DNA of 62,447 bases, filler included, from an uncultured Methanosarcinales archaeon (GTDB lineage Archaea > Nanobdellota > Nanobdellia > Woesearchaeales > CAYSVS01), in assembly GCA_964434475.1 (NCBI GenBank). It is 3 parts of 3 records of this genome, joined end to end, with 100 filler letters (N's around TTAATTAATTAA, not from the genome) between each part and the next. Parts side by side here need not be neighbours in the genome. Positions count along the whole stretch, not along the records: positions 1 to 22,819 come from CAYSVS010000001.1; 2 more parts are not named here. One strand, given 5' to 3'. The notes under the pieces were generated by a model. It saw nothing but the letters and a program-made list of their open reading frames with translations. It was not told the origin of the DNA and did not search any database. The translations under genes were made by a program, and so were the position numbers. Shown one piece after another: positions 1,414 through 27,496 of this stretch (position 1 is its first letter; each line of letters starts with the position of its first letter).

Positions 1414-1567
1414 GGGGATGTAGTATAAACTGCTTCAACATATATGTTGGACAGGTACATCCTGGCTAGAATAGTCGGCTCCAGATGTTGGAGCGATGAG
1501 GCACTATGTGCTGATGAACTACAACAGGCTAAACCGTCGGATCTGGGTTCGAATCCCAGCATCCCCA
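1414..1567 (+). tRNA. trnW: tRNA-Trp(CCA) with two introns: D-loop intron 1429-1460 (15/16) and canonical 37/38 intron about 1485-1532
   Basis: Acceptor GGGGATG/CATCCCC-A; T arm CTGGG-TTCGAAT-CCCAG; anticodon CCA 1481-1483; intron 1 forms GTAT/GTAC helix with AAA and ATC bulges; intron 2 has TGTTG/CAACA stem and C/D-box-like GATGA/CTGA. Confidence 0.9.
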
Positions 1568-1663
1568 TCATTCCCTTATTCTTTTCATATTGTGATTTTA
1601 ATGTTTTATTTTAAATAATTTTTAAGCACTTTGTTTTTGTTGTCCTTATAAAGTAGTCATAAA

Positions 1664-1718: not shown

Positions 1719-4700
1719 ATGGTTTTGAAAGATTATTTGTCCAAAACAAAGAATATTCTTACAAGCGATGTGGGAGATTTAGCTAGTTCTATAAACAAAA
1801 AATTATCTGGAAATATGTTATATAGGTTAGCTTCTGGTGTGCCTTCTGTCGCTTACAGTGGATTGAAAAATAGCGCTAAGTTATGTACAAGGTCATCTGA
1901 ATATTTTGCTGGCAAAAATGGAGGAGAATCAGGATCTGAGATAGGCAAATATGTTTCGCTGCCGTCTGCTGCAGCATCTACTATACTTGGAGCAGCAGCT
2001 TTTGGTGCGCCTGGATTGATTATGGGTGCAATTTCAGCACCAGTTGTATCTGCAGGATCTGGTTATTGTTCCAGTTTGTTGGTTGAATCTCTTAAAGAGA
2101 CAAAAAACAAAGGTATTATTTCAGGTGCAAAGAAATTGGCTAAAGGAACTTTTGCTCCTATAAAATCTATACTTGATATTCCAGGAGATTCTTTCAATTA
2201 TCTTAATGGGATAGATATTTCTAAAGATAAGGAAACGTATGGAAACTTTACAGATGTTCTTAATTGTCTTTATTTTTTTATGGAAGACCTGAGAAATTAT
2301 GGAATTAATTCTGCTCCTGCTGTTAGAGAAGTTGTTTTTGAGAATGATGTCAATTTTGAAATGTATAATGATAAGCAGGTAAAATCCTTGGAAAAAATAG
2401 TCAAAAAAGTAAAAAAAGCAAAACAGAATATTCAGCAGGAATATGATGGTTGGAAAAAGGGTAATTTATCGGACGGTCTTTCTGGTTTTGAAAATTTTGC
2501 AAAGAATAAAACACAAGAATTTAAGGATAATGTAAGAGGCAACCTTTACTCTGTACTTGAAAAATATGTTGATGTTGAAGATAGTTTGTCTGATATGGAT
2601 AAATTATTTTTTGATGAATTAAATTCTGATGCTAGATATGATGTTATTAAGAAATTGTTCAAAAGACAATTTGATGATAACAGCAAAGAATACAAACAGT
2701 TTGTTAAGAAAAAAGATAATATTCTTGAACAAATACTTCCTGATGCTTATGCGCTTGTCCAGATGAGTGCTAAAGAAGCAATAGGTCTAGAGCATTATGA
2801 TGAACAGATTTTAGCAGGTATATCGCAAAATCAAGGTAAGATTATAAAGATGAGGACAGGGGAAGGCAAGACATTGACATCTGCTTTGCCTATATACCTT
2901 AATGCTTTAGCAGGCCAGTCACATTGGGTAACAAGGAACGAGTATGATTCTCAGAGGGATTTTGATAATTTTAGCAAATTATTTGATTATCTAGGATTAA
3001 GATCGTCTTTGAACAGAGAAGATATAGATAATAAAGAACGTAAAAGAATATTTGCAGACAGTGATGTTATATTCAGCGATATATCTTCTGTAGCTTTCAC
3101 TTATCTTAGGAATACTTTGGCTAAAGATATAACTGATATTGTGAATATGGATTTTAATTATGCTAATGTTGATGAGTTTGATCAAATAACCATAGACAAT
3201 GGTCTTACACCTTTTGTCATAGACAATGGAAATAAAAGCTTTATGTCTGATATGTCTGCTAAGATTGGAGAGATATGTCAATATTTATATGATACTGACA
3301 TGAAAAAAGGATATGCTAACACATTAGATTTTGATATAGTTGATTTTTTTGATAGGTATGGACCTCAAAATATGGTCGCTCAGACTTTGAGTTTGATAAA
3401 TCATGTTAAATTGAATCCTGAAAATTCTGAAATTGAAATGTATGTTGCAAATCTTTTAGGGCAATCAAAAAGAGATTTAAAATATTTTAATAAAGATGAT
3501 TATGCTCTAAATAAAAGCGTAAGGGAAGGCATAAACGAGCTTATACTTTTCTATTCTAAACACGCAGATGATCCTATAAGCAATCAGATAGTAAAACTGT
3601 TGGGCGATAATGGAACAGATTACAACCTAATAGATTTTGAGCATAATTTTAGTGAAACTGCTTTAGAAGATTTTATTGGTTTTTTCAATAAGAAAACTGA
3701 ATCAGAATTGTCTGTTAAAGATTACAATACTGACTTAAACCTGAAGAATGATCTTAATGTTTATTTTTTAGAAAACATTAAAGGTATTTTAGAAAATGTA
3801 TATAGCTTAGGAAAAAAAGACATACGATCTGTTATCGGAAATCTTGGTTTTGCCATGCAAGGTGGAGATTTTATCTCAGATAAAGCTAATAATTATGTTA
3901 TGTTGACTGAAATTGGTACAGATAAGATTCAGTCTTGTATAAATGAATTTTTCGAATCTGCTAACCTACCCAGCTTTATCCCTAAAGCCTATTTTTTACA
4001 GAAGATGGATCTTGCATTAAGAGTAAATGAACTGATGGAGGATACTTATGGAATAATAGAAGACAGTGAAGGGATTCCTAAGATAAGGATATATGATTCT
4101 GTTCAGGGAGAGTTTAAACACGACAACCAAAAATATTCAGAAGGTATGAACCAGGCTTTAGAAGCTAAAGTTTTTGGAAGAGTATTGAACAAAGAAACAG
4201 AACCTGCTACTAAGATTATGGTTCATTATTTGTTAGGATTATATGACAAGTTTTCAGGCCAGACAGGAACACCTTCAAATAAAGCGTCATATCAGATTTT
4301 TAATAAAGAAACTGTTGATGTTCCTACTCATTTTCCTGATATTAGAGTACATCATCCTGAGAAACTATATGCCACTAAAAATGAAAAGATAGATAATATA
4401 ATAGAGAAAGTCAAAGAGACTAATCTTGACAGTAATCCTTGTCTTATAATTTGTGAATCCGATAAATTATCTTTAGAAATTTACAATAGAATAAAAGATA
4501 TGGATGGTGTTGATAAGGATAAATTAAATCTATTTACTGACTTTAAAGCTCAAAATTCAGACGATCCTTATGGATATAAGAAGAATATTGTGAAAAAAGC
4601 AGGTATGGCTAAAGAGATTACCGTAGCAACAAATATGGGTGGAAGGGCTATAGATATACCTGTTGACAATAGTGCTTATGCTGACTCTGTAATAGACAAT

Positions 4701-6995
4701 ATAGTTAGACAGTCTATTGGCAGCTATAATGAAGGAACTTCTGTTTTTTTGAGAACAAGCGATTCTGTATTGGTTGATGAGAATAGGTGTACTGTAAAGA
4801 AAAAAGGCTTGGTGCAATACGACAATCTTATTTTTAATAAGTCTTCACAGAATTTAGAGACCAGTTTAACAGACGAAAATCTTGATTTTTTTGCGTCTTT
4901 TTTTAATGATCATGAAGAAAAAGGCAGAGGTTATATTATCGCAAAAAGATCAGGTCAGAAATTAGATGTTGAAACTCTGGATAAAGAGGAGCACAATTTT
5001 TTATTGGATAATATTTTATCAGCGATAAACTTATCCTGTAATAAGAAGGGTCTTGCTGTTATAGACTCTTATTCTGAGATTGATAACAGCGGAAGGATTG
5101 TAATATATGAAAAAGGACAGCCTTTAGAGTTTGTTGCGAATTCTAAAAAAGATATGAAAAAAGCAGAGAAGAAAATCAAGAGATTGGTAGGAAAGGAGAA
5201 TGTTATATCTTACTACAATCCTTATCTTACTAATGGATATGTTTATGCTTATCCTGATAGATGTAATGTGAATCTTCCTGTAATAGGTTCTAAAGACTGT
5301 ACTGATGTTTTAAATAGTATAAGCGGTAAGATGTTAAATGAAAACCTTGAATATTTCGATATATTGGAGTCATATAAGATATCCAATGATCTGAAGACAT
5401 CAGATTCAAGCACTTTTAGTAAAGACATAACACCTGGTTTGACAGTTATACATGGAGAAAAACAAAAATTTGAGCGTGCTGAACAGCAAGCTATCGGAAG
5501 GACTGGAAGACAAGGGCAACAGGGAAGCACATATTATTTTTCTTCTTTGGATGATTCTTTGTTGGATTTTATAAATAAGGACTCTTCTCAGAAAATATTA
5601 TCATGTCAAAAAGCTTTATCAGGTCATACTTATGGAAAAGAGTTGAACAAGGTTTTCTTTGGTCAGAGAAAAGGAGACAATTTTAATTATTTGGCTAATT
5701 TTAGAGAACAGATGGAGTCCAAGAATCTTGCAAATCTTATATCTGAAGTAAAGCTTGAAAATTATCTTGAAGGCGATAGGAAAAGGGTTTTTGAAATAAG
5801 AAATGATATACTTAGAAGTGATGATAAGGAATTAAGCGAAAGGATATCGGAAAATGCTGATCATTTTATAGATAGATTATATGGTTCTTTTGGAATATCT
5901 CATGATTCTAAACATAAGGATCTGTTGGATTTGGATGATTATCTTCAGAGTTATGGGGTTGATATAGATTTTAGTGATGCTCAAAGTATGAGGGATAATT
6001 TGAGATCTGCATTAGTGCCTTCTGAACAATCCAACCTGAAGCAGAGGGTGTTGAATATTATAGATTTTTATTGGAGAAATCATATGGGGAATATGAATCA
6101 AATAAAGCATCAAATATCTTCAGCAAAAGACTATGGGAAAACAAGTGCTCCTGTTTCAGGGTTGTTGTTTGATAGGATTGAAGATAAAGTCCTTGAGGAT
6201 TATTTCAAGATTGATCTGCCTAAATCTTATTTGGATAATTATGATAAAGCCTTGGCTAAAAAAGGACTTATCATGAATCACAAAAATATGGAAGAAAGAA
6301 ACATTTTAGAGAATATAGTTATGAACAGGATAAGAAGAAGATTTGCTAAAGATGATGCTTCTTTAGTGCAGGTAATGGTCGATAAGAAAAGTTTTGATAG
6401 AGAAGAGTATATGAGAGCTGATAAGGATTTTATAGGTGATGTTCTGGCTAATATGAACATATTTGATAAATCTAAATATTTTATCAATAAACTATCTTTG
6501 GGTATGTTGTTTCCTAGTTCAGGATTAGATGCTTTTGCTGATACTTATTATAATAAGAGGTTAAAGTTTATGAGGCTTCCTTTGAATAAAGAATCTGAAA
6601 AGGATGAATTGTTTGAGCAGATAGAAGCTGCTTATTATCCTAAAAAGATAGTAAGCGTCGATGAAATTATGTGTAGAGATAAAAAGTTTGCCGATAGTTT
6701 GTCTTTAAGAGATAAATTTAGCTTATTTGGTAATGGTGAAAGATCAAATAAGATAAGACAGGATTTTGTTGACAAAAGTCTGAGAAATAACAAGTATGTT
6801 CGGGAAGTGTTTAATATTGAAGACTGTGCTGATCATGTGCTTGAAACAAAAGGCATGAGATCTGAGCTTGAATTGTTTATGAAGTTGTTTGATAAAAATT
6901 CAGGTAAATTCACAGATGATGATCTGGATAAGTTCAAGATACTTCAGCCAGATGATATTGAACAGATAAAAAATGATCTTGTTTTTATCGGTTAG
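1719..6995 (+). CDS. secA: Divergent, enlarged SecA-family translocase ATPase (1758 aa)
   Basis: HYDEQ, MRTGEGKT (Walker A), VDEFDQITID (Walker B), YSEGMNQALEAK, SGQTGT, VATNMGGRAIDI, QAIGRTGRQG-YYFSSLDD, scaffold helix and IDFYWRNHM all in SecA order. Confidence 0.92.
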   Translation: MVLKDYLSKTKNILTSDVGDLASSINKKLSGNMLYRLASGVPSVAYSGLKNSAKLCTRSSEYFAGKNGGESGSEIGKYVSLPSAAASTILGAAAFGAPGLIMGAISAPVVSAGSGYCSSLLVESLKETKNKGIISGAKKLAKGTFAPIKSILDIPGDSFNYLNGIDISKDKETYGNFTDVLNCLYFFMEDLRNYGINSAPAVREVVFENDVNFEMYNDKQVKSLEKIVKKVKKAKQNIQQEYDGWKKGNLSDGLSGFENFAKNKTQEFKDNVRGNLYSVLEKYVDVEDSLSDMDKLFFDELNSDARYDVIKKLFKRQFDDNSKEYKQFVKKKDNILEQILPDAYALVQMSAKEAIGLEHYDEQILAGISQNQGKIIKMRTGEGKTLTSALPIYLNALAGQSHWVTRNEYDSQRDFDNFSKLFDYLGLRSSLNREDIDNKERKRIFADSDVIFSDISSVAFTYLRNTLAKDITDIVNMDFNYANVDEFDQITIDNGLTPFVIDNGNKSFMSDMSAKIGEICQYLYDTDMKKGYANTLDFDIVDFFDRYGPQNMVAQTLSLINHVKLNPENSEIEMYVANLLGQSKRDLKYFNKDDYALNKSVREGINELILFYSKHADDPISNQIVKLLGDNGTDYNLIDFEHNFSETALEDFIGFFNKKTESELSVKDYNTDLNLKNDLNVYFLENIKGILENVYSLGKKDIRSVIGNLGFAMQGGDFISDKANNYVMLTEIGTDKIQSCINEFFESANLPSFIPKAYFLQKMDLALRVNELMEDTYGIIEDSEGIPKIRIYDSVQGEFKHDNQKYSEGMNQALEAKVFGRVLNKETEPATKIMVHYLLGLYDKFSGQTGTPSNKASYQIFNKETVDVPTHFPDIRVHHPEKLYATKNEKIDNIIEKVKETNLDSNPCLIICESDKLSLEIYNRIKDMDGVDKDKLNLFTDFKAQNSDDPYGYKKNIVKKAGMAKEITVATNMGGRAIDIPVDNSAYADSVIDNIVRQSIGSYNEGTSVFLRTSDSVLVDENRCTVKKKGLVQYDNLIFNKSSQNLETSLTDENLDFFASFFNDHEEKGRGYIIAKRSGQKLDVETLDKEEHNFLLDNILSAINLSCNKKGLAVIDSYSEIDNSGRIVIYEKGQPLEFVANSKKDMKKAEKKIKRLVGKENVISYYNPYLTNGYVYAYPDRCNVNLPVIGSKDCTDVLNSISGKMLNENLEYFDILESYKISNDLKTSDSSTFSKDITPGLTVIHGEKQKFERAEQQAIGRTGRQGQQGSTYYFSSLDDSLLDFINKDSSQKILSCQKALSGHTYGKELNKVFFGQRKGDNFNYLANFREQMESKNLANLISEVKLENYLEGDRKRVFEIRNDILRSDDKELSERISENADHFIDRLYGSFGISHDSKHKDLLDLDDYLQSYGVDIDFSDAQSMRDNLRSALVPSEQSNLKQRVLNIIDFYWRNHMGNMNQIKHQISSAKDYGKTSAPVSGLLFDRIEDKVLEDYFKIDLPKSYLDNYDKALAKKGLIMNHKNMEERNILENIVMNRIRRRFAKDDASLVQVMVDKKSFDREEYMRADKDFIGDVLANMNIFDKSKYFINKLSLGMLFPSSGLDAFADTYYNKRLKFMRLPLNKESEKDELFEQIEAAYYPKKIVSVDEIMCRDKKFADSLSLRDKFSLFGNGERSNKIRQDFVDKSLRNNKYVREVFNIEDCADHVLETKGMRSELELFMKLFDKNSGKFTDDDLDKFKILQPDDIEQIKNDLVFIG

Positions 6996-7047
6996 ATGAG
7001 AAACAAGCACAACATATTCGTACATTGTCACTGTTAAGTAAGAAATT

Positions 7048-7063
7048 CAGTAACATTTAAATA
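7048..7063 (+). promoter_or_regulatory. Variant promoter CAGTAACATTTAAATA
   Basis: TATA box TTTAAATA preceded by CAGT rather than GAAA; same spacing at 9372, 12157, 37151. Confidence 0.7.
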
Positions 7064-7106
7064 TGTCTAACATTTGACAGATACAATACTATAATATTCA
7101 CGGAGG

Positions 7107-8165
7107 ATGATTTTAATGAATCAAATTGATGGCTTAGTAAGGGATACGCTAGATAGTGTTTTGGATGATGATAAGATTGCAGAATATCTTTCCAATAAAC
7201 TGCTTACACAGATAAATAAGACGCAAAATTCAGATAATGGTATAAAAAGCATACGTGATGGAACAAAGACTATCAAAAGATTTTATGATTCATTGAATGA
7301 AGATAAAAACAGCATATTGAATGATCCTAGAACTTTAAAGAACATATTAGGTGATAATGATTATTCTCCTTTAATACAGGAAAATGGCAGTAAACAAGAA
7401 TTTGCTGCAGGAGTTAAAGACTTCTTATTGAAATATATCAAATTTGCAAATATATCTTCTTCATTGGACGAAACTTTGGATTCTAAATATGAACAGATCG
7501 GTGCTTTGGATAAGGTTAATGAAAAGCAACCTATGAAAGCAGGCTGGCTTCTGTTTAAGAATTTTGGTCTTAAAGGTTTGACGAATAAAGAAGCTTATCT
7601 TAGAACAATAGCTGATGTGATGGAAACCAAAAATCTATCTTTAGAACAAGCAAAAGATGAGATTCCTAATTTAGTTTCTCAGATAGAAAAAAACAGTAGG
7701 AAATTAGATAACAAGGAGTATACTGCAGGAACACAATCTTATAGGATGAGAGAGATAGGAGAATGGTTTGATGCAAACAAAGTTGGTCTTGCAGCAGGAG
7801 TTGCAGCGCTTGCAATTGCAGCAGGAGGTATGTTTGCTATGCCTAAGTTATTTTACTCAGATAATGCCCATGATGCAAAAGCTTATGTCATAGAAGCTGA
7901 TGCTAAATTAAAAGAAGCTAATAATCTTCTTGAAAGTGCGGATGCAATGATCGCTGAGCAGAATAAGAAGCTAGAAACTGTTAAAAAAGAAGCTTCAAAG
8001 GTTGATCTTGCTGACAAATACCTGTCGCAATTTACTGGTATGCCTTATGCACCTGCTCATGATGAACTAGGAGAAGTAAGAACTAAGTTTGGTTTTAATT
8101 CTTCTGAATATAATGCAGCTGCAGAAGCTTTTGAAGATGCCTTTGGAATAAAACCTAATTTTTAA
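7107..8165 (+). CDS. Hypothetical membrane protein with one Gly/Ala-rich TM helix followed by coiled coil
   Basis: 352-aa ORF, SD GGAGG; VGLAAGVAALAIAAGGMFAM segment; heptad-like EADAKLKEANNLLESADAM. Confidence 0.8.
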   Translation: MILMNQIDGLVRDTLDSVLDDDKIAEYLSNKLLTQINKTQNSDNGIKSIRDGTKTIKRFYDSLNEDKNSILNDPRTLKNILGDNDYSPLIQENGSKQEFAAGVKDFLLKYIKFANISSSLDETLDSKYEQIGALDKVNEKQPMKAGWLLFKNFGLKGLTNKEAYLRTIADVMETKNLSLEQAKDEIPNLVSQIEKNSRKLDNKEYTAGTQSYRMREIGEWFDANKVGLAAGVAALAIAAGGMFAMPKLFYSDNAHDAKAYVIEADAKLKEANNLLESADAMIAEQNKKLETVKKEASKVDLADKYLSQFTGMPYAPAHDELGEVRTKFGFNSSEYNAAAEAFEDAFGIKPNF

Positions 8166-8176
8166 GGTGATCTGAT

Positions 8177-9361
8177 TTGTCTGGAAATAAAGAGGACAAT
8201 TTTTTATTTGATCCATTAGAGGAGAAAGTAACTAAGGAAGCTAAAAAGAAACGGTATCAAAACATAAAAAATGTTCTTAAATATTCTGCAGTAAGTTTTT
8301 TAGTAGGTGCTTCTCTTTGTTTCGGCTACCGTAATATGGATAATATCAAGTCTTTTTTGTCTGGTTCTGGAAAAGATGTTTTTGAGATAAAGAACAAGCA
8401 GCTGAAAAAAGTACGTAAACTTGAGCAGCTTTCTGAAAAAGATTTTAAGAAATATATTTCTCTCCATGAAAGATCCATAGATACTACTTTTTTCAGAGAT
8501 AATGATTTTATTGCAAAAGATAATAAATTAAGGGTTGTAGTAAATGCCGGCCATTTAGGAGGAAGATTTAGAGACGGAAGAAAATTTAATGAGGGTGCGG
8601 TTTATAAAGGTCTGGGGGAGACTGATTTAACTCCTGTTGCTGCGAAAATAATATGCCAGGAACTTGAAAAAAATTCTTCTTTCAAGCCTAAACTTATGAA
8701 ATCGCATGATTATAACACTCTTTTGAACTATGCTCCCTGGATATTAAATAGATTTAAGGTGACCTGGGGAGAGTCTTTGTATCCTGATGAGTATGATATA
8801 AACAGTCCTTATTTGTCTGATTTCTTAGATTGTATCGACGGAAATACGCGAAAAGCGAAATATAAGTCTGTAAGATCAGGAATTATATTTTCGCTTGGAA
8901 AAAAGGAAAGTAAAGGTCGAACTATTCAGAATAGTGCAGGCCATATATTTATTGAAACGCATTATGACTCTATGAATGGACGAAGATTCAAGGTTTATGT
9001 TCCAAGGGAATATGAGTGTGGAGATTATGGTTATGCAAGTTTCAAGAACAGGCAGCTCGAACTTTCAAAGAAACTGGCTTTGTATATTACAGAGGAAGCA
9101 TATAATCAAGGTATAGAAAGCGCTAAGCCAGGAGTTATAGGAAGGGATGATTCTATACAGATGATATTCAATCCTTTGCCTGTGTCTGTGTTGGTGGAAT
9201 ACGACAATATAGATGAAAGAAATTCAACAAATGCTGTATATATGACTAAAGTTGCTAAAGCAGTTAATATGGCTTTAGATAGGTTTGCCAGAGAAGAGTA
9301 TGATCAATTGATCAGGTACCCTGTGTCTGATAGCGGCTTGTTGGCAAGTAATCACTATTAA
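8177..9361 (+). CDS. Membrane-anchored N-acetylmuramoyl-L-alanine amidase (Amidase_3 family)
   Basis: TTG start with GGTGA SD; N-terminal TM; VVVNAGHLGG (His), LGETDL (Glu), IFIETHYDS (His), PVSVLVEYDNI (catalytic Glu). Confidence 0.85.
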   Translation: MSGNKEDNFLFDPLEEKVTKEAKKKRYQNIKNVLKYSAVSFLVGASLCFGYRNMDNIKSFLSGSGKDVFEIKNKQLKKVRKLEQLSEKDFKKYISLHERSIDTTFFRDNDFIAKDNKLRVVVNAGHLGGRFRDGRKFNEGAVYKGLGETDLTPVAAKIICQELEKNSSFKPKLMKSHDYNTLLNYAPWILNRFKVTWGESLYPDEYDINSPYLSDFLDCIDGNTRKAKYKSVRSGIIFSLGKKESKGRTIQNSAGHIFIETHYDSMNGRRFKVYVPREYECGDYGYASFKNRQLELSKKLALYITEEAYNQGIESAKPGVIGRDDSIQMIFNPLPVSVLVEYDNIDERNSTNAVYMTKVAKAVNMALDRFAREEYDQLIRYPVSDSGLLASNHY

Positions 9362-9371
9362 ATGACTAAAT

Positions 9372-9387
9372 CAGTTATATTTAAATA
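9372..9387 (+). promoter_or_regulatory. Variant promoter CAGTTATATTTAAATA
   Basis: About 20 nt upstream of ATG 9407; matches shared motif. Confidence 0.7.
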
Positions 9388-9406
9388 AGTCTAGAATTTA
9401 ACAAAG

Positions 9407-12061
9407 ATGGTAAAGATGGAATATTCAGCAGTAACAAAGACAGGAAACAGCAGCGCAGCAATAGACTTAGAATCTAGATTAAAGAAAGATACTGAGGAAA
9501 TAATTATTTTCAATACAACTTCTGAAAAACAAAAAAAATCTGAGAAAAAAAGAATTTCTGCAAAACTTGTACACAATCCTGAGAAAAGGGAGTTTTCTTT
9601 GCTAAATGATTGTCTGACAGAACATTATAATCAGAGATTTAAACCTTCTATAGTATGGAGTTTTACGAGTGGAAAAGGGGGTGTTGGAAAGACAACTATT
9701 GCAGGAGTTACTGCAAGAAGGCTTGCATTGGATAAAAATAATTATAAGGTTCTTCTTGTAGATGCAGATCATGGTGGACAGAATAATATACATCATCTCT
9801 TTGGAAAACAGAATAATGATAATAAAGCTATATTGAATATGGTTGAGAATGAAAGATATATGCTAAATAAGAAAAATTTAGTCAAGAGTGCTGTTTCAGA
9901 GTATCTTGATTCAGCTATTGATGTTCTATGGTCTTGTGGTCTTAAAGGTTTTAAAGAAATTTATAAGTCTTTTAATAAAGACGGAATCACTCTTGATGTA
10001 TCTATAGGTAATAAGGCAGGTGTTGATTTTTCTGATGATTACTCTGTTAGGAACGTTATAGGAAATATTATTTACGATAAGATGCCTGATTATTCAAAAG
10101 AGATAACTGGTGCAGTGATGGAATATGTAATCTATGATTTCAAAAGCAGGTCATCTGTTATAGAGAATTTTAAAGGTAAATCCAACTATAAGAAAATACT
10201 TAGCAGTATAGTTAAAAATATCCCCAAAGAACCTTTGATAAAGTCTATCTTAAGATCTGATGTTGTCTCTAAATTTATCGAAGATGTTAATGAAGAACTT
10301 GAGATTTCTTATTTTGGCCAGGATAATGTCCTTAAACAAATATGTGATAACTCAATAGTCAATGCAAAAGTATCTGAAGAAGAAAAAAAATGTCTTGGTC
10401 TTTTCAGTTCACAAAAAAATTATAATCTATCTTATGTAGATTTAGCAGGAAACGTGAAGATAGATGAAAAGAATTCCATGGGTTTAAGAAAAATTTCAAA
10501 AGTATTGAGCTATGCTTCCTCTAAATTAGGATACGACTTTGTAATAATAGATAATGGTGCAGGATCTAATAAACTTAATGATCTAAGTTCATTTTCTGAT
10601 GCCGCCATAGTCGTCGTAAATGATTCTGTGCCGTCAAAGGATGGTGCTGTAGCTGCATTGGAATCCATCTCTTTAAAAAATTATGAACTTACTATGCAGC
10701 AAGCTTTGGATGGTGGTTTTAATGCAAAACATGTCTTATACGGGATGCTTAATTCGTTGAACAAGAAAGACGAAGGAGAGGATCTTTGCGATCACGTTTT
10801 AAAAAAGATGAAGTCTTTGAAATCTGATCCTTATTTGTGCAGCATGGATTATTTAGGAAGTATAGAAGAATTGACCAAATCAAAAATAAATAAAATAACA
10901 CATAAGAACATACTTAAATCAATGACAAAAGTTTTGTCAAAAAGAGGTATGAAGGAAGATGATATTGTGCAGATATATAGGGGTTTAGGATATACTCCTT
11001 CAACTATAAAACACTCTATAGATAAATCTTTGTTAGGATATTATTTGGATGAAGTTTATACTAGTCTAAAGAAACAAGGTTTCAAAACATTAGGTATATT
11101 GACCTATCTTGCTTATGAGATGGATTTCAACCATAAAGATATTTTGAAGATAGATGATCTGAAAGAGATATCGCAAAAAGATCCTGAGGCTTTTAATGAT
11201 ATAATGGGAAAACTTTCAAAATTTTTCTATGTGCAGGATGAATCTGTAAACTATAAGACTATCATGAAAGAACTTGAAGAGCAAGGTTATCTGTTTCATG
11301 GAGATGATGTGATTAATGATAATTCCGATCTTCTAGCGAAAAGGCTTGAACTGGAATATTCTTCGATATCTCACTTTATGGGTGCTGTCAGAAAAGAAAA
11401 AAAGTCCATAGACGTGGCTTCAGATATAAAAAACATGATATCTTCCTGCGATATGTTAAGGGCTGGTGCAAAGTTAAATAGGGTTGCTGATTTTGAGTCT
11501 AAAGATAATTTAAGGAATTCTAGACAGAAAGAATTAGCTAAGAAATATCAAGAGCATTTAAATTATTATGGCATCTCAGAAAATCATCATAAATCTTTGC
11601 TTAATTATTTTTGCGGTGCAAAGATGTATTTTAATGAATTAACTTCCCATTTTGTAAAGGATAATCCTGATATATGTGATGCTTATGATGATGATATTTT
11701 CAGGACAAATAGGATCAAAATTATTGAAAAAATATCCTATAGAAATAATCTTCATACTTTTATGATATTGAACAGGAAAGATCCTAAAGAAAAAAAGTCT
11801 TGGCGAGATTATCGCGAGGAGTTAAACACTCTTGTGAAGAATAGATTGGGATTTGAGCCTAATGGGTTAGATTATGTTGTAGAGGATAAGGATACTTTCA
11901 ATAAAGCTAATTCATCCAATTGGTCAGAGATATTTTTAAAGAATGCAAAAGAAGGTCGATTGTCTAAGTCCATAGAGAATTGCGTAACAACTATACTTCC
12001 AAGTGCGAAAAAGAAATGGGCTTGGTTGAAATTTAGATATTTTGACAGGGTATGTTATTAA
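9407..12061 (+). CDS. MinD/FlhG/ParA-family P-loop ATPase with large insertions (884 aa)
   Basis: SGKGGVGKTT deviant Walker A; VLLVDAD; YDFVIIDNGAG; SDAAIVVV; late MILNR; basic-aromatic C-terminus. Confidence 0.88.
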   Translation: MVKMEYSAVTKTGNSSAAIDLESRLKKDTEEIIIFNTTSEKQKKSEKKRISAKLVHNPEKREFSLLNDCLTEHYNQRFKPSIVWSFTSGKGGVGKTTIAGVTARRLALDKNNYKVLLVDADHGGQNNIHHLFGKQNNDNKAILNMVENERYMLNKKNLVKSAVSEYLDSAIDVLWSCGLKGFKEIYKSFNKDGITLDVSIGNKAGVDFSDDYSVRNVIGNIIYDKMPDYSKEITGAVMEYVIYDFKSRSSVIENFKGKSNYKKILSSIVKNIPKEPLIKSILRSDVVSKFIEDVNEELEISYFGQDNVLKQICDNSIVNAKVSEEEKKCLGLFSSQKNYNLSYVDLAGNVKIDEKNSMGLRKISKVLSYASSKLGYDFVIIDNGAGSNKLNDLSSFSDAAIVVVNDSVPSKDGAVAALESISLKNYELTMQQALDGGFNAKHVLYGMLNSLNKKDEGEDLCDHVLKKMKSLKSDPYLCSMDYLGSIEELTKSKINKITHKNILKSMTKVLSKRGMKEDDIVQIYRGLGYTPSTIKHSIDKSLLGYYLDEVYTSLKKQGFKTLGILTYLAYEMDFNHKDILKIDDLKEISQKDPEAFNDIMGKLSKFFYVQDESVNYKTIMKELEEQGYLFHGDDVINDNSDLLAKRLELEYSSISHFMGAVRKEKKSIDVASDIKNMISSCDMLRAGAKLNRVADFESKDNLRNSRQKELAKKYQEHLNYYGISENHHKSLLNYFCGAKMYFNELTSHFVKDNPDICDAYDDDIFRTNRIKIIEKISYRNNLHTFMILNRKDPKEKKSWRDYREELNTLVKNRLGFEPNGLDYVVEDKDTFNKANSSNWSEIFLKNAKEGRLSKSIENCVTTILPSAKKKWAWLKFRYFDRVCY

Positions 12062-12104
12062 GACAATATGTGTTTTAAATCATATAAATTATTTTAAATA
12101 GCAA

Positions 12105-12120
12105 TGACAAATCTTTGTCA
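12105..12120. promoter_or_regulatory. Palindromic putative operator TGACAAA-TC-TTTGTCA
   Basis: Perfect 7-bp inverted repeat upstream of the variant promoter; CACTATTTAGT direct repeats nearby (about 12124 and 12200). Confidence 0.5.
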
Positions 12121-12156
12121 AAACACTATTTAGTTACTATTCATAAATGAAAAAAT

Positions 12157-12172
12157 CAGTAAGCTTTAAATA
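12157..12172 (+). promoter_or_regulatory. Variant promoter CAGTAAGCTTTAAATA
   Basis: Matches shared motif, about 105 nt upstream of ATG 12279. Confidence 0.65.
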
Positions 12173-12278
12173 TATTTGTCACTTTACAGGGTAGAAAAGC
12201 ACTATTTAGTGATGATTATTCATAATTCAAAGAGGGGAAACACGATAAATAGAAATAACACACGGAGGATGTTAAAAA

Positions 12279-14552
12279 ATGGTATGGGGTAATCCAATTT
12301 CAAAAGCTAACGAAGAAGTATTCAATCCTAATATAAGAACTGCGGGAGCAACCGCTGGAATGGCGACTCTTGGATATGGTCTTATGACTGTAGCTAAGAT
12401 GATGTCTCCAACAGATGCAAGTGCTGCAGAGAATAAAAAACTTATAGATATAGAAAAAACAGGAAAATATGACGCTCTAGTGGCTCAGACAAAAGCTTAT
12501 CTTAAAGGAGTAGGAGACACTAAATCACTTTCTCATATAGAGACTGGTTTTGACGGTTATAGACAAGATGATAATAAATCAACAGATTACGAATTTACAG
12601 ATTTCAGTATAGACGGCAACAATGTTTCATTTTATGATACTGAGATGCTTGGAAATGTGCCTGTTTCTTCTTTAGAGGTAAAAGCTAATAAAGAAATAGG
12701 AAGAAAATACATGGAATTCCTTAAAAGGGTTGTTGAGAAATCAAATGATCATAAATTAAGCAACTTTGAGCCTGATTATCATCTAGCAGCTAATGAGATG
12801 ACTCAAAAGGTGAGGGATCTTTATTCTGAAATTAAATCTCAACAAAGCGGAAGCAGAAATGTTAATGCTTTAGATGGAGAATATAAACAAACATTTGAGA
12901 TGATGAAAAAGTATGCTGGCATGGAAGGGTGGAGCGTAAAAGATATACAAAAACATTATGGTTTGAAACAAGACGGTTTAGCAGGGACTAAGACACTGAA
13001 CAGATTGAATCCTGACGCTAAAAAAGTATACAGTAATCTTAAAGCACAAAAACCTTCTGTAAAAAAATCAAGTATGAAGTCAGTCAAAATATCAAGAAAT
13101 CCTGCTTCAAATCTTGAAGCTAAGGTTGAAAGCAGCGGTTTTGATGAACAATTGACTTTTGATGAACAATTGACAGAAGACGTAGGTTATACTTACAGAA
13201 CAATAAAAAGCCAGAAAAGCGGAAGCAAGAATGTAGAATCTTTGCCTCATGACTCTACAGTTGAATCTACTTATAATAAATTGGTTGACTTGGCTGGATT
13301 CAATGGAAAAGATACAAAAGAGATCCAAAAAGAGTTAGGATTGAAATCAGACGGTTTAGCAGGAGTAAAGACATTGAATAGATTAGTTAAGATGGCTAAG
13401 GCTAATTCTAACTACTCAAGTAATGATAATACTTTGGAGAAAACAATGTCTAATGCAGATGTTGAAAATATCGCTCAATCTGCGATGAGTTCAACAAGCC
13501 CTTTTATCGAGGATGTTAGGGATCTGTACGATGCTTTGGAAAAACAGCCAAAAGGAAGCAGACATATAGATGCTTTGGCAAAGAGTGTAAGCACAGAACA
13601 AGGAGCAAAATATCTTGCAACTTTTTGGAAGATGACAGATTTTGCTCAAGAAGGAGGATTACAGTTCAATAAGCAGGAGGATAATCCTAAATTATCATAT
13701 GAAAACCTTCAGAAAGCTTTAGGTGCTCATGTTGACGGTAAACCTGGATTGGGAACATTGAATAAGTTAAATCCATTGGCTAAGCCTGTTTATACAAGCA
13801 TGCCTAAGTCTGAGTTCAAAGAATCATATGTTTCTAATGAAGCTCAGAACGCTCAAGATAAGGTTATCAAACAGCTAGAGAAGGATCTTGGAACAAAGAT
13901 CGCTGGTGAGGATAATAATGTTCAGAAAACAGACACACAGAAAGCAGCTGAAAAGGCTATGGATAAGATAGATGAAGCAAAAGAAAACAGAAGAGATGCT
14001 TATATGGACAGAGAATTACAAAATACTAGTCTAGATAGCGCTGTCTCAAGATTAAATGATCTTAATGTTGAAGGATTAAAGCCTAGTGTTGATGAAACCG
14101 GAAACTTCACTTTCCAAAGGAAAAGAGGAAGCATTGAAGGTTCAATTACAACAAGCGGAGATAAATATGTAGTATCTATGCAGGGCGGAATCAAGGATGG
14201 CGAATTCAACGGTAAATACAGTTCATTGGATAATGCTATGAATTCAATCGAAGAAGCTGTACTTAACAGAACATCAGCAAGTGCTCTTGATAGTATGGGC
14301 GGTGCTGGAAAAGCTGTTGGAGTTGTCGGCGGAATCGCTTTGCTGGCTGCTTTACTTGGCGGCGGCAGTGGCGGCAGTTCAGGCGGAGGCTCAAGTGCAA
14401 CATCTGCACATGATTCATCCAACACTTTTGAGAACGACATTGCAGGATTCTCTATGAAAAACCAAAGCAATCCTGAAGTTGATCAGTTCGATAAAGACAG
14501 CAATGATGTTAACAAGAATATCAATTATTTCCTAAATATGAGGAATGCATAA
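12279..14552 (+). CDS. Exported/membrane protein with three peptidoglycan-binding (PG_binding_1-like) repeats and a Gly-rich hydrophobic C-terminal segment
   Basis: IQKHYGLKQDGLAGTKTLNRL, IQKELGLKSDGLAGVKTLNRL, LQKALGAHVDGKPGLGTLNKL; N-terminal hydrophobic stretch; VGVVGGIALLAALLGGGSGG. Confidence 0.75.
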   Translation: MVWGNPISKANEEVFNPNIRTAGATAGMATLGYGLMTVAKMMSPTDASAAENKKLIDIEKTGKYDALVAQTKAYLKGVGDTKSLSHIETGFDGYRQDDNKSTDYEFTDFSIDGNNVSFYDTEMLGNVPVSSLEVKANKEIGRKYMEFLKRVVEKSNDHKLSNFEPDYHLAANEMTQKVRDLYSEIKSQQSGSRNVNALDGEYKQTFEMMKKYAGMEGWSVKDIQKHYGLKQDGLAGTKTLNRLNPDAKKVYSNLKAQKPSVKKSSMKSVKISRNPASNLEAKVESSGFDEQLTFDEQLTEDVGYTYRTIKSQKSGSKNVESLPHDSTVESTYNKLVDLAGFNGKDTKEIQKELGLKSDGLAGVKTLNRLVKMAKANSNYSSNDNTLEKTMSNADVENIAQSAMSSTSPFIEDVRDLYDALEKQPKGSRHIDALAKSVSTEQGAKYLATFWKMTDFAQEGGLQFNKQEDNPKLSYENLQKALGAHVDGKPGLGTLNKLNPLAKPVYTSMPKSEFKESYVSNEAQNAQDKVIKQLEKDLGTKIAGEDNNVQKTDTQKAAEKAMDKIDEAKENRRDAYMDRELQNTSLDSAVSRLNDLNVEGLKPSVDETGNFTFQRKRGSIEGSITTSGDKYVVSMQGGIKDGEFNGKYSSLDNAMNSIEEAVLNRTSASALDSMGGAGKAVGVVGGIALLAALLGGGSGGSSGGGSSATSAHDSSNTFENDIAGFSMKNQSNPEVDQFDKDSNDVNKNINYFLNMRNA
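13139..13174 (+). repeat. 18-bp tandem duplication (FDEQLT x2)
   Basis: TTTTGATGAACAATTGAC twice in tandem, in frame. Confidence 0.85.
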
Positions 14553-14575
14553 AAAACGTAGAGGAGGAAAACAAA

Positions 14576-17245
14576 ATGAAAAAATTACCTTTTATTTTTA
14601 CGATAATGATTTTGGTATTTTCATTACCTGTATTAGGGTTAACGTTCAAGACAATGGTAATTGATGTTGATACTAATTTGTCAATCAACAATTCCCATGT
14701 GATCATGTTGAATGCTTACACTCAAGCAGTAAGTGAAAAGGATGCTGGAGATGTAGCTACTTTTACTGTTGATGGAAATACTTTGTACTTTATCACTTAT
14801 TCAGCGAGCGGATACGGTGCTGATACAGACGCATTATATTTTGACAGCGGATTAGTGTCATTAGATTCAGCACAATCGCCGGTAGAGTTAGAAAGCAACG
14901 GATTTACAACAACATGTGAATTTTTTGGCGCTAACGATTTCTGGAACTGTGAAGTTGATGACGGTCAAGGAGACACTGGTTATTTTGTAGTTGATGACCT
15001 TGATAAGACAGTGATGAAAGTAAACAATCTTAATGAAGACGGAAATACTTATGAGTACTTCTTTACGGCTTTTGCATCTGATATTCAATCAAAAGATACT
15101 TTGAGCGATGTTACAGTTAAGGTTGGTTCAGTTACAAAGACTGCAGATAGTCTTGCTAATTTCATACTGCCTACTGATAAGTTATATCAGATAGATTTTA
15201 GCAAATCAGGATATACATCAAAATCAACGCAGATATATATGGATAAGAGATTATCTACTTGTGATGAATCAGCTACTACATGTACATTGGCGGAAAATGA
15301 AGACGGCTATTCTACATCATGTGTAAAAGACGGAGATTTTTTTGAATGTACTTTTATGAAAGATGGTGTAGGAAGAGTATTCTTATATGATCCTGTTGAT
15401 GAAGCTGTAGGCTATGAAGCAGAGCTTCAAAAGGCAGGTATGAGTAGTTTTACATACAAGACATGGGCGGTTGATGAGGAAACAGATGATGAGTTAGACT
15501 CTATAACTGTTACTGTAGGAAGAGACACAAAAACTGGTTCAGCTCCTGAATTCACTGTTTCAACAAATCAAGTTTTTTCAATAACATATGAAGCAGAAGG
15601 TTATGGGACAGAAGAAGCTCTGATGTTTGTAGACGCAGATATAGGTAATTGTAATACTGCAGCAGGAACATGCGAACTAGAAACAGGTGGTTTCATTACA
15701 GAAGGCGTATTCTTTGCAGATTACAATCTCTGGTCATTTACAGTAGAACAAGGAGAATATAAAACTGCTTATATGTATGATCTTAATGATGACAAAGTTA
15801 AGCAGATTAGAATAATGGCTCTTTCAGATGAGGATACAGAATACCCTGTTGTATCAAATATGGTGCCTACACAAGGTGCTACTGTATATGACAGAACACC
15901 TCTTATCTCAGCAGAAGTTAGCGACAATGTTGGAATAGATGGAGATTCAATTGAATTGACTCTTGATGGTGCAGTTGTTGCACATAATCTTAATAGCAGT
16001 GTTGTAAGCTATACTCCTGTAGAAAATCTTGACTTTGGAGAGCATGAAGCAAGTTTAAGAGTTTCAGATACAAGCGGCAATACTTATACAAGATGTTGGT
16101 CATTTACAGTTGCAAACCAAGCACCTATAGCAGATGCATCTTCAGATGAGACAAGCGTTGAAGTTGGAGAATCAATCTCATTCAATGCAGGATTATCATA
16201 TGATCCAGATGGAGATAGTTTAACATTTTCATGGGATTTTGGAGACGGCAATAGTGCGACAGGATTGCTTGCAGCTCATTCATATTCAACATCAGGCACA
16301 TATACTGTTACATTGAATGTTACAGACGAGCATGGTTCATCAAGTACTGATACTATATCTATCAGCGTATCTGTTGAAAATAATGCTCCGGTAGCAGATG
16401 CTGGTAATGATCAAACAGTAAGTGTTAACGATGAAGTGCAGTTTGATAGTTCTGGTTCATCTGATCCTGATGGAGATAGTTTAACATTTTCATGGGATTT
16501 TGGAGACGGTACAATTCTGGGTGTAGTTAATCCTACACATAATTTCACAGAATACGGCAACTATACTGTTGTGTTGACTGTAACAGATGAGTATGGATCA
16601 AGCGACACAGATAGTGTTAAGATAATCGTAAACGGCATACCTACTGCAGTTGCAGGAGGGCCTTATACTGGATATGTCAATGAATCATTGGGATTTGATG
16701 GAACAGATTCTAGTGATGATGAAGATGGACTTCAGTATAAATGGGAATTTGGCGACGGCAGTACGGGTTCAGGAGAGAATCCTACTCACACATATACTCA
16801 AGCAGGAACTTATACGGTTAAATTGACAGTGATTGATGTAGATGGACTTAACAAAACAGATATGACTACAGCTACAATAACAGAAAAAGACACACCTGCA
16901 CCAGCTCCAGAAAAAAAGGATAAAGAAGTGACTTTTGCAAGGATTACATCAGTAAATAGTGAATTCGCATTACCTGGAGATTATGTCAAGTATAATTTTA
17001 AGCTTGCGAATACAGGAGACTGCGATATGGAAGACGTGAAAATAAAAGCGATAATTCCTGAACTGGCAGTGTGGAGAAGTGTTGGACCTTTTGACATAGA
17101 CGAAGACGACGAAGTTTACAAACAGCTATTGTTAGAGATACCTGAGTATGCAGTGTCAGGAGAAGAGTATATGGTCAGGTTTAAGATTAGTCAGGGTGGA
17201 GAACACCTTAGGACTAAACATAGGTTTATTAGGGTAATCCAATAA
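14576..17245 (+). CDS. Secreted surface protein: three Cys-containing N-terminal repeats, Ig-like domain, three PKD domains, CARDB-like C-terminus
   Basis: Signal peptide; WDFGDG/WEFGDG PKD motifs x3; SD GAGGAGG. Confidence 0.9.
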   Translation: MKKLPFIFTIMILVFSLPVLGLTFKTMVIDVDTNLSINNSHVIMLNAYTQAVSEKDAGDVATFTVDGNTLYFITYSASGYGADTDALYFDSGLVSLDSAQSPVELESNGFTTTCEFFGANDFWNCEVDDGQGDTGYFVVDDLDKTVMKVNNLNEDGNTYEYFFTAFASDIQSKDTLSDVTVKVGSVTKTADSLANFILPTDKLYQIDFSKSGYTSKSTQIYMDKRLSTCDESATTCTLAENEDGYSTSCVKDGDFFECTFMKDGVGRVFLYDPVDEAVGYEAELQKAGMSSFTYKTWAVDEETDDELDSITVTVGRDTKTGSAPEFTVSTNQVFSITYEAEGYGTEEALMFVDADIGNCNTAAGTCELETGGFITEGVFFADYNLWSFTVEQGEYKTAYMYDLNDDKVKQIRIMALSDEDTEYPVVSNMVPTQGATVYDRTPLISAEVSDNVGIDGDSIELTLDGAVVAHNLNSSVVSYTPVENLDFGEHEASLRVSDTSGNTYTRCWSFTVANQAPIADASSDETSVEVGESISFNAGLSYDPDGDSLTFSWDFGDGNSATGLLAAHSYSTSGTYTVTLNVTDEHGSSSTDTISISVSVENNAPVADAGNDQTVSVNDEVQFDSSGSSDPDGDSLTFSWDFGDGTILGVVNPTHNFTEYGNYTVVLTVTDEYGSSDTDSVKIIVNGIPTAVAGGPYTGYVNESLGFDGTDSSDDEDGLQYKWEFGDGSTGSGENPTHTYTQAGTYTVKLTVIDVDGLNKTDMTTATITEKDTPAPAPEKKDKEVTFARITSVNSEFALPGDYVKYNFKLANTGDCDMEDVKIKAIIPELAVWRSVGPFDIDEDDEVYKQLLLEIPEYAVSGEEYMVRFKISQGGEHLRTKHRFIRVIQ
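16208..16509 (+). repeat. 41-bp exact direct repeat between PKD domains 1 and 2 (16208-16248, 16469-16509)
   Basis: GATGGAGATAGTTTAACATTTTCATGGGATTTTGGAGACGG twice. Confidence 0.85.
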
Positions 17246-22819: not shown

Positions 22820-22919
22820 NNNNNNNNNNNNNNNNNNNNNNNNNNNNNNNNNNNNNNNNNNNNTTAATTAATTAANNNNNNNNNNNNNNNNNNNNNNNNN
22901 NNNNNNNNNNNNNNNNNNN
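22820..22919. other. Assembly gap with TTAATTAATTAA linker
   Basis: 44 N + 12-mer with stops in all frames + 44 N. Confidence 0.97.
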
Positions 22920-23060
22920 GTGTTCAACTACCTAATTTTTTCGGTTTTTAGAAAAATCTGCACAACTCCAGTAAGGTAATTAATAATACGAATATTTTAG
23001 CTTCAGGAGACAGCGCAAATTAAAAATTTGCTGGCCATCCTTTGCTCAGGTGATAATAAA

Positions 23061-23663
23061 ATGAAGATACTCGCTTCAGGAGACATACACGGAGATACTA
23101 GCTTAGCAGAGAAATTAGCTAAGAAAGCAGAAGACAATAAGGTAGATCTTGTTGTATTATGTGGAGATCTAACGTATGCTGAAGCATCAACTAAAAACCT
23201 AATAGGGCCTTTTGCAAAAAGAAATCAAAAAGTTGTTCTTATTCCAGGCAATCATGAGACTGTTGCAACAGCAGACTTTTTGGCTGAGCTTTATGGAGCC
23301 ACTAACTTGCACGGATATTCTATAAAAGCAGGAGAGATTGGCTTGTTTGGCGCAGGCGGCGCTAATGTTGGACTGCATCAGTTTTCAGAAGATGAATTCT
23401 ATGAACTATTACAAAAAGGACATAACTATATCAAAGATATGAAGAAAAGAATTATGGTAACACATGTGCATCCTACAGGCACAAAGATGGAAAAATTCAC
23501 AAGCTTTTTTCCAGGCTCAACAGGAGTTAAAAAAGCGATAGATGCTTTTAAGCCGGATATCTTGCTTTGCTCTCATGTTCACGAAGCAGAAGGGATCGAA
23601 GAGAGATTAGGAAACACAAAAGTCATAAATGTAGGTAAAGAAGGAAAAATCTTAGACATCTAA
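23061..23663 (+). CDS. Calcineurin-like metallophosphoesterase
   Basis: DIHG, GDL, GNHE, THVHP, SHVHE motifs; SD AGGTGA before ATG 23061. Confidence 0.9.
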   Translation: MKILASGDIHGDTSLAEKLAKKAEDNKVDLVVLCGDLTYAEASTKNLIGPFAKRNQKVVLIPGNHETVATADFLAELYGATNLHGYSIKAGEIGLFGAGGANVGLHQFSEDEFYELLQKGHNYIKDMKKRIMVTHVHPTGTKMEKFTSFFPGSTGVKKAIDAFKPDILLCSHVHEAEGIEERLGNTKVINVGKEGKILDI

Positions 23664-25965: not shown

Positions 25966-25997
25966 AATCAAAGAAGTTAATAGCATCATATATAAAA

Positions 25998-26225
25998 TTA
26001 ATCCAAAAATATAAGGCCTTGAGATTCTTCTTTTTGTTCTTCAGGTTCTGTTTTTTGAGGTTGTTCTGTAGAATTGAACATATTGAACATATCTGTAGGT
26101 TGAGAATTGTTTTCAAATATGTTAGAATTTGACTTGTGTTCGTGGTTTGTCAGATTTCTCAATAACTCGATAGCTTTGATTATATCTTCCTTAGAATCAT
26201 GTTGTGTGTCTATTGTGATTTTCAT
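25998..26225 (-). CDS. Small hypothetical protein
   Basis: 75-aa ORF, MKITIDT...DIIKAIELL N-terminal domain with low-complexity tail. Confidence 0.7.
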   Translation of the reverse strand: MKITIDTQHDSKEDIIKAIELLRNLTNHEHKSNSNIFENNSQPTDMFNMFNSTEQPQKTEPEEQKEESQGLIFLD

Positions 26226-26250
26226 AAGATATTGTTTGATATTTGTATAT

Positions 26251-27490: not shown

Positions 27491-27496
27491 ATTTAC

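Follow-up and report, generated by a model that had tools for sequence, protein, structure and literature searches.

Why would an archaeal genome carry, in one row of genes, a SecA-like ATPase, a candidate peptidoglycan amidase, a MinD-like ATPase and a protein with murein-binding repeats, and could such genes be directed at the wall of a bacterium? The question is raised by a locus near the start of the window analysed here, i.e. the whole stretch of 62,447 nucleotides from the metagenome-assembled genome GCA_964434475.1 of an uncultured DPANN archaeon of the order Woesearchaeales. A first-pass annotation had taken six adjacent genes of this locus for one dedicated apparatus serving to attach to bacteria, to breach their wall and to export proteins. 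Our answer is that five of these genes, spanning 1719-14552, constitute the unit, a strain-specific island, and that an accessory envelope module aimed, as a whole, at bacterial murein is the likeliest reading of it, plausible though unproven, to which we give a probability of roughly 0.42. The five genes are the following.

1719..6995, + strand: P0001, a highly divergent SecA-like ATPase of 1758 amino acids (aa), with four SecA domains in Pfam.
7107..8165, + strand: P0002, a bitopic protein of 352 aa with a coiled-coil-like tail and no family.
8177..9361, + strand: P0003, a predicted membrane-anchored protein of 394 aa with a remote Amidase_3 fold and an insert of ~75 residues.
9407..12061, + strand: P0004, a MinD/ParA-type ATPase of 884 aa with a deviant Walker A motif.
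12279..14552, + strand: P0005, a protein of 757 aa with three PG_binding_1-type repeats and a C-terminal transmembrane helix at 674-698.

Together with the next gene downstream (14576-17245), they form six co-oriented open reading frames (ORFs), found exactly where the first-pass annotation had placed them and in sequence devoid of any N from 1 to 22819. The gaps between successive ORFs are of 112, 12, 46, 218 and 24 bp, and all five ORFs of the unit are intact at 32% G+C. The archaeal TATA promoters proposed for the set were retrieved in part: TATA-like octamers, of which there are 17 in 22.8 kb, lie 5' of three of the six genes (TTTATATA at -47; TTTAAATA at -51, which is that of P0002, and at -27) but not of the other three. 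The P0002 start codon is also preceded, 7 bases upstream, by GGAGG.

The SecA assignment of P0001 held when profile searches were run. Four domains scored above their Pfam cut-offs: SecA_DEAD (177.9 bits) and P-loop_SecA (70.1 bits) and, in narrow passes, SecA_SW (32.1 for a cut-off of 26.7) and SecA_PP_bind (25.7 for a cut-off of 23.5). What P0001 shares with bacterial SecA and SecA2 is the DEAD motor, the second nucleotide-binding domain (GRxGRQG), and the cross-linking and scaffold/wing domains; its motifs MRTGEGKT at 378, VDEFD at 484 and GRTGRQG at 1260 are intact. What sets it apart is a length twice the usual one, with big inserts within both nucleotide-binding domains, an N-terminal extension carrying a hydrophobic Ala/Gly-rich segment (78-122) and a C-terminal extension of 290 aa; the SEC-C zinc motif was not reported. 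P0001 stays below the level at which SecA equivalogs are called: the best NCBIfam model gave 319.2 bits for a cut-off of 862, and the SecA2 models gave 172-271 bits for cut-offs of 725-1100. Among 7,467 candidate relatives drawn from 5.8 billion clustered proteins, 24 had E <= 0.001. One is P0001; the other 23 belong to the SecA family, are 967-1104 aa long, cover 10-16% of P0001 at 27-36% identity and are bacterial where the source is named. In a tree of 31 rows (P0001, seven sequences from the order and 23 bacterial ones), the end branch of P0001 measures 6.6 changes per site and none of the sets is supported; this tree could not place P0001, and it is also silent on the donor because the bacterial rows are nearest hits only. 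We infer that P0001 is a SecA-type motor with intact ATPase motifs; translocation through SecY is a prediction only.

P0002, announced as a transmembrane protein, does possess one hydrophobic transmembrane helix, at 225-246, followed by the coiled-coil-like tail. Searches of Pfam, NCBIfam and other libraries revealed no family in it, nor any activator domain such as LytM or TPR.

For P0003, earlier labelled a peptidoglycan amidase, direct family recognition failed while remote similarity was retrieved. No Pfam family matched it even at E <= 10, Amidase_3 included, a six-frame Amidase_3 search of the genome gave 0 candidates, and phmmer against the sequences of the Protein Data Bank gave a chance match only. 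Its one relative among 1.84 billion representatives is P0031 (E 1.1e-5). A profile made of P0003 and P0031 was compared, using hhalign, with 13 Amidase_3 ORFs of 290-410 aa from the same order (16 had been extracted and the 3 longer ones were excluded): the score was 90.8%, with an E of 1.2e-6, over residues 252-372. Residues H126, E148, H262 and E341 occupy four family columns (GH, E, H and E) that are invariant or nearly so and that we take to be the metal-binding (His-Glu-His) and catalytic Glu positions of Amidase_3. The column assignment is supported by an extended alignment and by an independent MAFFT alignment, and P0031 keeps all four equivalents. An AlphaFold model built on a 15-row alignment reached a predicted local distance difference test (pLDDT) value of 66 and a predicted template modelling (pTM) score of 0.69, the insert of 75 residues being disordered. 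When this model was submitted to Foldseek, all the top matches were Amidase_3 enzymes (CwlD, AmiB, AmiP, AmiC2, CD27L, Rv3717 and LytH), with E down to 1e-7 and template modelling scores to target of 0.58-0.75; this is a consistency check and not an independent result, because the model was built on amidase rows. Amidase_3 was suggested by a language-model atlas too (0.89), a result that we treat as a lead only. Thus P0003 has in common with the known enzymes of the family (CwlD, AmiA/B/C, LytH, AmiP, CD27L) the modelled fold and the His/Glu/His/Glu columns, and differs from them by the absence of a Pfam match, the low-confidence insert and the single known relative. Its N terminus, KKKRYQNIK and then a hydrophobic stretch, is signal-anchor-like and similar to the N-terminal membrane anchor carried by LytH and CwlD. 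We read P0003 as a predicted enzyme of remote Amidase_3 fold, probably signal-anchored, with an apparently intact active site.

The nature of these Foldseek matches brings in a regulated hydrolase switch, modelled on FtsEX-EnvC-amidase and ActH-LytH, in which a cytoplasmic ATPase would act via P0002 to turn on P0003 outside the cell, the SecA-like protein having no translocase role. The P0003 model does match activator-dependent amidases that were solved with their partners (CwlD-GerS, AmiB-EnvC and LytH-ActH), P0002 and P0003 are 12 bp apart, P0002 has its transmembrane helix placed ahead of a coiled-coil-like tail, and the large inserts of P0001, together with scores far under the SecA equivalog cut-offs, could go with a loss of the translocase role. 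The scheme is, however, pure analogy, and P0002 lacks the activator domains named above; we consider it distinctly unlikely.

The MinD-like nature attributed to P0004 was borne out. Pfam detects CbiA (51 bits), the P-loop reads GKGGVGKT at 89 and the Walker B region VIIDNGAG at 379, and the protein aligns to the solved MinD 4v03 over 85-149 and 354-430, i.e. over the P-loop and Walker B parts that it shares with the MinD/ParA/FlhG/Get3 (SIMIBI) proteins. MinD is of ~260 aa, whereas P0004, with its 884 aa, adds an insert of ~200 aa between the MinD-aligned parts and a C-terminal region of 400 aa, of unknown kind. MinD has a C-terminal membrane helix; at the corresponding place P0004 has a basic-aromatic tail, with KKKWAWLKFRYF at 868. 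Here too the equivalog level is not attained (minD_bact, 44.8 versus 212.9; ParA_partition, 32.2 versus 180). No MinC/MinE or ParB partner family was detected by Pfam among the neighbours, the search for relatives of similar length returned P0004 itself only, and its C-terminal half gave chance-level scores (0.85) in the atlas.

The peptidoglycan-binding repeats attributed to P0005 were likewise found, with 38.2 bits for PG_binding_1 against a Pfam cut-off of 23, although the best stretch fits the C-terminal half of the profile only (33-57 of 57). The three repeats, at about 176-250, 300-376 and 410-500, end in the PG_binding_1 signature and also give SleB-type alignments. P0005 is the sole PG_binding_1 match in the genome, and no relatives of it were found in the protein searches. 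At the domain level it is shown to display three PG_binding_1-type repeats and to be held in the membrane by its C-terminal helix; murein binding is predicted from these repeats.

It had also been proposed, as an alternative, that the SecA- and MinD-like proteins are mimics delivered to disturb the secretion and division of a host. Nothing beyond the domain names speaks for this proposal. The two proteins are of 1758 and 884 aa, both are well under the bacterial SecA and MinD equivalog cut-offs, P0004 has no signal sequence and the island contains no delivery system. We regard such mimicry as very improbable.

Since bacterial-type domains are met here within an archaeal metagenome-assembled genome of 148 contigs, a chimeric assembly or mis-binned bacterial DNA had to be envisaged. 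The source genome (1.50 Mb, 97% complete, 0.85% contaminated) has for largest contig C1, of 87,274 bp, whose start corresponds to positions 1-22819 of the window, and the whole six-ORF stretch lies within this first piece. In a separate assembly of run X1, the single DNA run containing the stretch and probably the source sample (hence the same reads), independent contigs cover 26-2570, 2650-8916 and 8909-16237, with the depth staying level at ~10 and the continuity of the junctions being judged from these assembled contigs; among the sequencing runs listed as containing the stretch there was no RNA run. The tetranucleotide distance of the island falls between the 16th and 53rd percentiles of 313 genome windows, and the G+C content of its windows is 0.32-0.34 for a genome value of 0.329. 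Past the island, C1 carries archaeal hallmark genes (STT3/AglB, aIF5B, aRF1, aIF5A, a DRG-type GTPase and HerA), and the genome contains an archaeal small-subunit rRNA (1412.7 bits), in line with the archaeal setting previously put forward. The flanks are also syntenic with a congener (see below). We conclude that the island is native to the archaeal genome and that the assembly is sound: there is no chimera, because both junctions are bridged at even depth and the composition is typical. The chance that these data mislead us on that point is, in our estimate, very small.

Some features of the assembly lie outside the island. Spacers of N around TTAATTAATTAA at 22820-22919 and 30523-30622 join the three pieces of the window. 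The middle piece, 22920-30522, had no match on the + strand of C1; the last one, 30623-62447, is contig C10, where a run of 100 N at 42857-42956 interrupts a gene for a 1767-aa Ig-domain protein. On C1 itself, a pilus-type gene set (T2SSE/T2SSF) is followed 2.1 kb downstream, at ~85.9-86.7 kb (L082:5939-6694), by a gene for a prolipoprotein diacylglyceryl transferase of bacterial type (LGT, 191 bits).

The extent of the unit was defined by comparison with two genomes of the same genus, G001 and G002. Two features border it.

1414..1570, + strand: a tRNA-like gene with ~80 extra bases, probably an intron-bearing archaeal tRNA, which marks the left edge of the slot.
14576..17245, + strand: P0006, a PKD-repeat surface protein of 889 aa (PKD, 240.9 bits) with a signal-like N terminus.

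P0006 has counterparts in G001 (E 4e-104) and G002 (E 1.7e-97), followed in each by the gene for a 423-aa surface protein (56-59% identity); the 1091-aa protein is less conserved (29-34%). In G001 a single contig, with which both flanks of the island are syntenic, bears, in this order, a permease gene, the tRNA-like gene, the genes for the PKD protein, the 423-aa protein and a large membrane protein, and a gene for a flavin adenine dinucleotide-binding protein. Between the tRNA-like and PKD genes, G001 has genes for proteins of 1075, 326, 801 and 270 aa, none with a Pfam family; G002, whose contig is broken, has genes for two proteins, one of 648 aa with a NAGPA domain and the other of 1061 aa or more. 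None of these slot proteins is a recognisable counterpart of the five island proteins as judged by BLASTP (nothing below E ~0.05) or single-sequence hhalign (<=4%). The unit is the five genes at 1719-14552, lying in a hypervariable tRNA-adjacent slot, because the PKD gene and the surface genes that follow are kept in the congeners while the five are replaced by unrelated genes. The PKD adhesin of the first-pass annotation is therefore real as to its domains, but it is a conserved flanking gene outside the variable unit.

The intron-bearing tRNA proposed on the left side was verified in part. Direct reading gives acceptor halves GGGGATG / CATCCCC and a canonical T arm, and the gene is kept in the congeners (1455-1568 is 84% identical in G002 and 1455-1502 is 83% identical in G001). 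Neither ARAGORN nor the Rfam tRNA model called it, however, the tmRNA model aligned at 20.5 bits, under its gathering score of 47, and intron-allowing ARAGORN combined with 1,386 trial deletions gave conflicting identities (Ser, Trp, Cys, Ile, Ala). On the - strand of the middle piece, at 24152-25989, a gene for the RtcB tRNA ligase adjoins that for archease, a pair consistent with the presence of intron-bearing tRNAs in the genome. A second tRNA 5' portion (acceptor and D-arm-like, lacking the insert) is located at ~1303-1330, some 110 bp 5' of the tRNA-like gene. Intron-allowing ARAGORN pairs it with the 3' half of that gene, and it may represent one half of a split tRNA, a duplicated half or a relic.

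This setting calls for considering that the five genes are what remains of mobile DNA or of a horizontal acquisition (a plasmid, a virus or a bacterial block) next to a tRNA gene, with no joint function. As with an integrative island, the unit is tRNA-adjacent and absent from close relatives, each of the three genomes compared within the genus has its own slot content and the stray tRNA 5' fragment is at hand; moreover, a ParA-type ATPase and murein-binding and amidase parts recall plasmids and phage lysins (PHROG matches). Other marks of mobility are missing: among the ORFs there is no integrase, replication or capsid gene, no tRNA-derived direct repeat flanks the unit and its composition is typical of the genome. 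No close relatives of P0001 or P0004 were found in the viral contigs of IMG/VR, and a phage collection gave only ordinary SecA genes, at less than 60% identity and over <=28% of the query. PADLOC produced a single weak match, and the five ORFs are long and intact, with their catalytic motifs kept. On balance an inert mobile remnant is unlikely.

A defence-island reading was also tried and dropped: it stood on that weak PADLOC match, to P0004 (E 3.6e-5), and on one weak ZorA-like match to a slot protein of G001. Reading by eye drew attention to the 801-aa slot protein of G001 (L023:5987-8392), in which GKGSSGKT is found at 29, together with a FDFAGG stretch and a GFRNFGKSLGFF tail. These hint at a MinD-type ATPase in the size class of P0004; Pfam finds no ParA domain in it even at E <= 1 and BLAST sees no relation to P0004. 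G001 also has an 838-aa PG_binding_1 protein of its own elsewhere (L075, G001:C1:145386-145511), between stretches that are syntenic with the window at 27.7 and 28.2 kb.

The location of the slot bears on another explanation, namely that the five genes serve the envelope of the archaeon itself, as a fast-evolving, lineage-specific set of repurposed bacterial-type domains in a surface-protein slot. The repeats would bind its own glycans or S-layer, the enzyme of amidase fold would cut another amide, and the SecA- and MinD-like ATPases would export and place the neighbouring PKD, 423-aa and 1091-aa surface proteins. Gram-positive bacteria are known to export surface-layer proteins by SecA2-type systems, which counts in favour of this explanation, as do the position of the island directly upstream of the conserved surface-protein cluster, the gap of 24 bp between P0005 and the PKD gene, and the fact that different large genes without a family fill the slot in each congener. 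The MinD-like look of the 801-aa protein goes in the same direction, by hinting at a shared and very fast-evolving theme, although the Pfam result just quoted does not follow suit. Yet both congeners keep the surface genes without any SecA (neither P0001 nor SecA_DEAD has a match anywhere in G001 or G002), and in every characterised case among the Foldseek matches PG_binding_1 and Amidase_3 are murein-directed. We hold a role in the archaeon's own envelope to be possible but rather doubtful.

To see how often such genes recur, 401 genomes of the order were searched for SecA_DEAD, and 80 relatives for Amidase_3, PG_binding_1 and P0001. SecA_DEAD was present in 14 of the 401, including the genome under study (11 of 398 if the unpublished genomes G303, G113 and G370 are set aside), and P0001 had a match beyond its own genome in one of the 80 relatives (G065). 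Seven published SecA-like loci (L026 and L067-L072; G065, G255, G399, G316, G350, G093 and G332) were inspected. Six have all four SecA domains and one has three, and four adjoin archaeal hallmark genes (RpoA''/S7/diphthamide synthase, deoxyhypusine synthase, PAC2 and DRG GTPase). In the rough tree these homologues do not group together, and several of them have very long branches. Amidase_3 was found in 22 of the 80 relatives and PG_binding_1, far rarer, in three. Murein amidases are thus common in this order, which lacks murein, and SecA is rare, and the two are unlinked outside this island. As to P0003, its profile met one 1675-bp metagenome contig without context and nothing in the species genomes.

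Two observations were made in passing. Many of the Amidase_3 proteins at 20 loci (L028-L047), of 300-370 aa, have a Cys-Pro motif just before the domain. In G316, a gene for a 951-aa GH25 muramidase protein (L069:14975-17830) lies 4.4 kb from the SecA-like gene, on the opposite strand and with housekeeping genes in between.

How would a murein-directed module operate? P0005 would hold bacterial sacculi or wall fragments at the archaeal surface, and local cleavage of the MurNAc-L-Ala link by P0003 would serve to attach, to gain access or to scavenge. The P0001 motor may drive export or insertion of the large ectodomain proteins of the island via the single archaeal SecY, P0004 may recruit or place the set at the membrane via its basic-aromatic tail, and the coiled coil of P0002 might link the two sides of the membrane. 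The roles given to the two ATPases are each held with less confidence than the module as a whole. In its favour are the tight spacings (12, 46 and 24 bp), the GGAGG and TATA-like signals, the juxtaposition of two membrane-anchored proteins bearing murein-directed domains with two NTPases having intact motifs, the occurrence of Amidase_3 proteins of 300-370 aa in the 22 relatives, and the published view that such enzymes of this group are aimed at bacteria (see below). The most ambitious version is a working archaeal accessory Sec pathway, with a SecA-derived motor adapted to the archaeal SecYE-beta channel; it would export a membrane-anchored murein binder and an amidase for attaching to a bacterial host and opening its wall, the giant MinD-like ATPase siting the contact. 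This version we consider unlikely.

Several results weigh against a murein-directed module. The five-gene island was found in neither of the two congeners, and none of the seven SecA-like loci has neighbours resembling P0002-P0005. Amidase_3 occurs in one of ten published SecA_DEAD-positive genomes, on another contig (two of the ten SecA_DEAD matches being weak: G063, 49 bits; G180, 29.5 bits), whereas 22 of the 80 relatives have it. The gene combination was not met a second time, and conservation or co-occurrence cannot be shown to back a functional unit, because the five proteins are almost without relatives beyond the SecA motor motifs: P0004 and P0005 have none and P0003 has one. The co-occurrence across relatives advanced in the first-pass annotation thus either fails or cannot be run, and nothing shows the joint working that a single dedicated apparatus implies. 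Nor has P0001 a SecY2-type partner, since the genome contains one SecY match (a 475-aa frame, 223 bits) and no second one; no SecY2/Asp-type families were seen among its neighbours. The amidase call is remote: with a two-row alignment AlphaFold failed on P0003 (pLDDT 38), and the later model depends on an alignment composed of genuine amidases. Both P0003 and P0005 carry an N-terminal segment, weakly hydrophobic in P0005, that stays under the hydrophobicity threshold used for transmembrane and signal calls (1.6), which is why export of these two proteins is something we infer. Finally, PG_binding_1 is also met in other archaea (Methanosarcina, in the control ring).

The genomic context of P0001 has partial counterparts in bacteria. 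Genes for SecA2 often neighbour those for exported envelope proteins, and P0001 is likewise beside such genes. With respect to the accessory SecA2-SecY2-Asp system, the host here is an archaeon with a single archaeal-type SecY and the neighbours are of other kinds.

Murein-active proteins have already been described in archaea. Three papers describe murein-hydrolysing or murein-binding proteins from Woesearchaeota, Pacearchaeota or haloarchaea and interpret them as tools against bacteria or for attaching to them: large lytic-transglycosylase proteins of Woesearchaeota, possible episymbionts of bacteria (PMC8204110), 'vampiristic' Woesearchaeota with murein hydrolases aimed at bacteria (PMC9723730), and archaeal hydrolases that kill bacteria, PG_binding_1 domains being used by the haloarchaeal enzymes (PMC12352652). 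In this light, the premise of exclusively archaeal hosts for DPANN is out of date, bacterial targets being proposed in the first two. Like the proteins of the island, those described there are exported and patchily distributed in hosts without murein. They are, however, lytic transglycosylases, peptidases or glucosaminidases that combine binding and catalysis in one chain, whereas in the island the binder and the amidase are separate, predicted membrane-anchored proteins encoded beside SecA- and MinD-like ATPases. SecA is not mentioned in the main texts of the three papers, and full-text literature searches gave no account of SecA homologues from DPANN archaea, supplements, which may list such genes, being outside that scope. 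According to a 2026 review (PMC13673990), archaea have no SecA homologue; a 2018 review (PMC6098224) considers the motor for post-translational archaeal Sec export as still unidentified. SecA homologues with the full domain set are present on archaeal contigs of this order, and one of them is encoded beside murein-directed envelope proteins.

To conclude, the murein-directed parts of the island fit a published theme; what is new is their link to a giant SecA-like and a giant MinD-like ATPase, a link without comparative backing, and its weight is limited by the island being a singleton from one metagenome-assembled genome. If the accessory Sec pathway proved true, Archaea would have in P0001 their first functional SecA, and the island would provide a genetic handle on archaeon-bacterium episymbiosis. 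These are, in any event, genes with which to ask whether a SecA can work with an archaeal channel, and whether some DPANN archaea live on bacteria.

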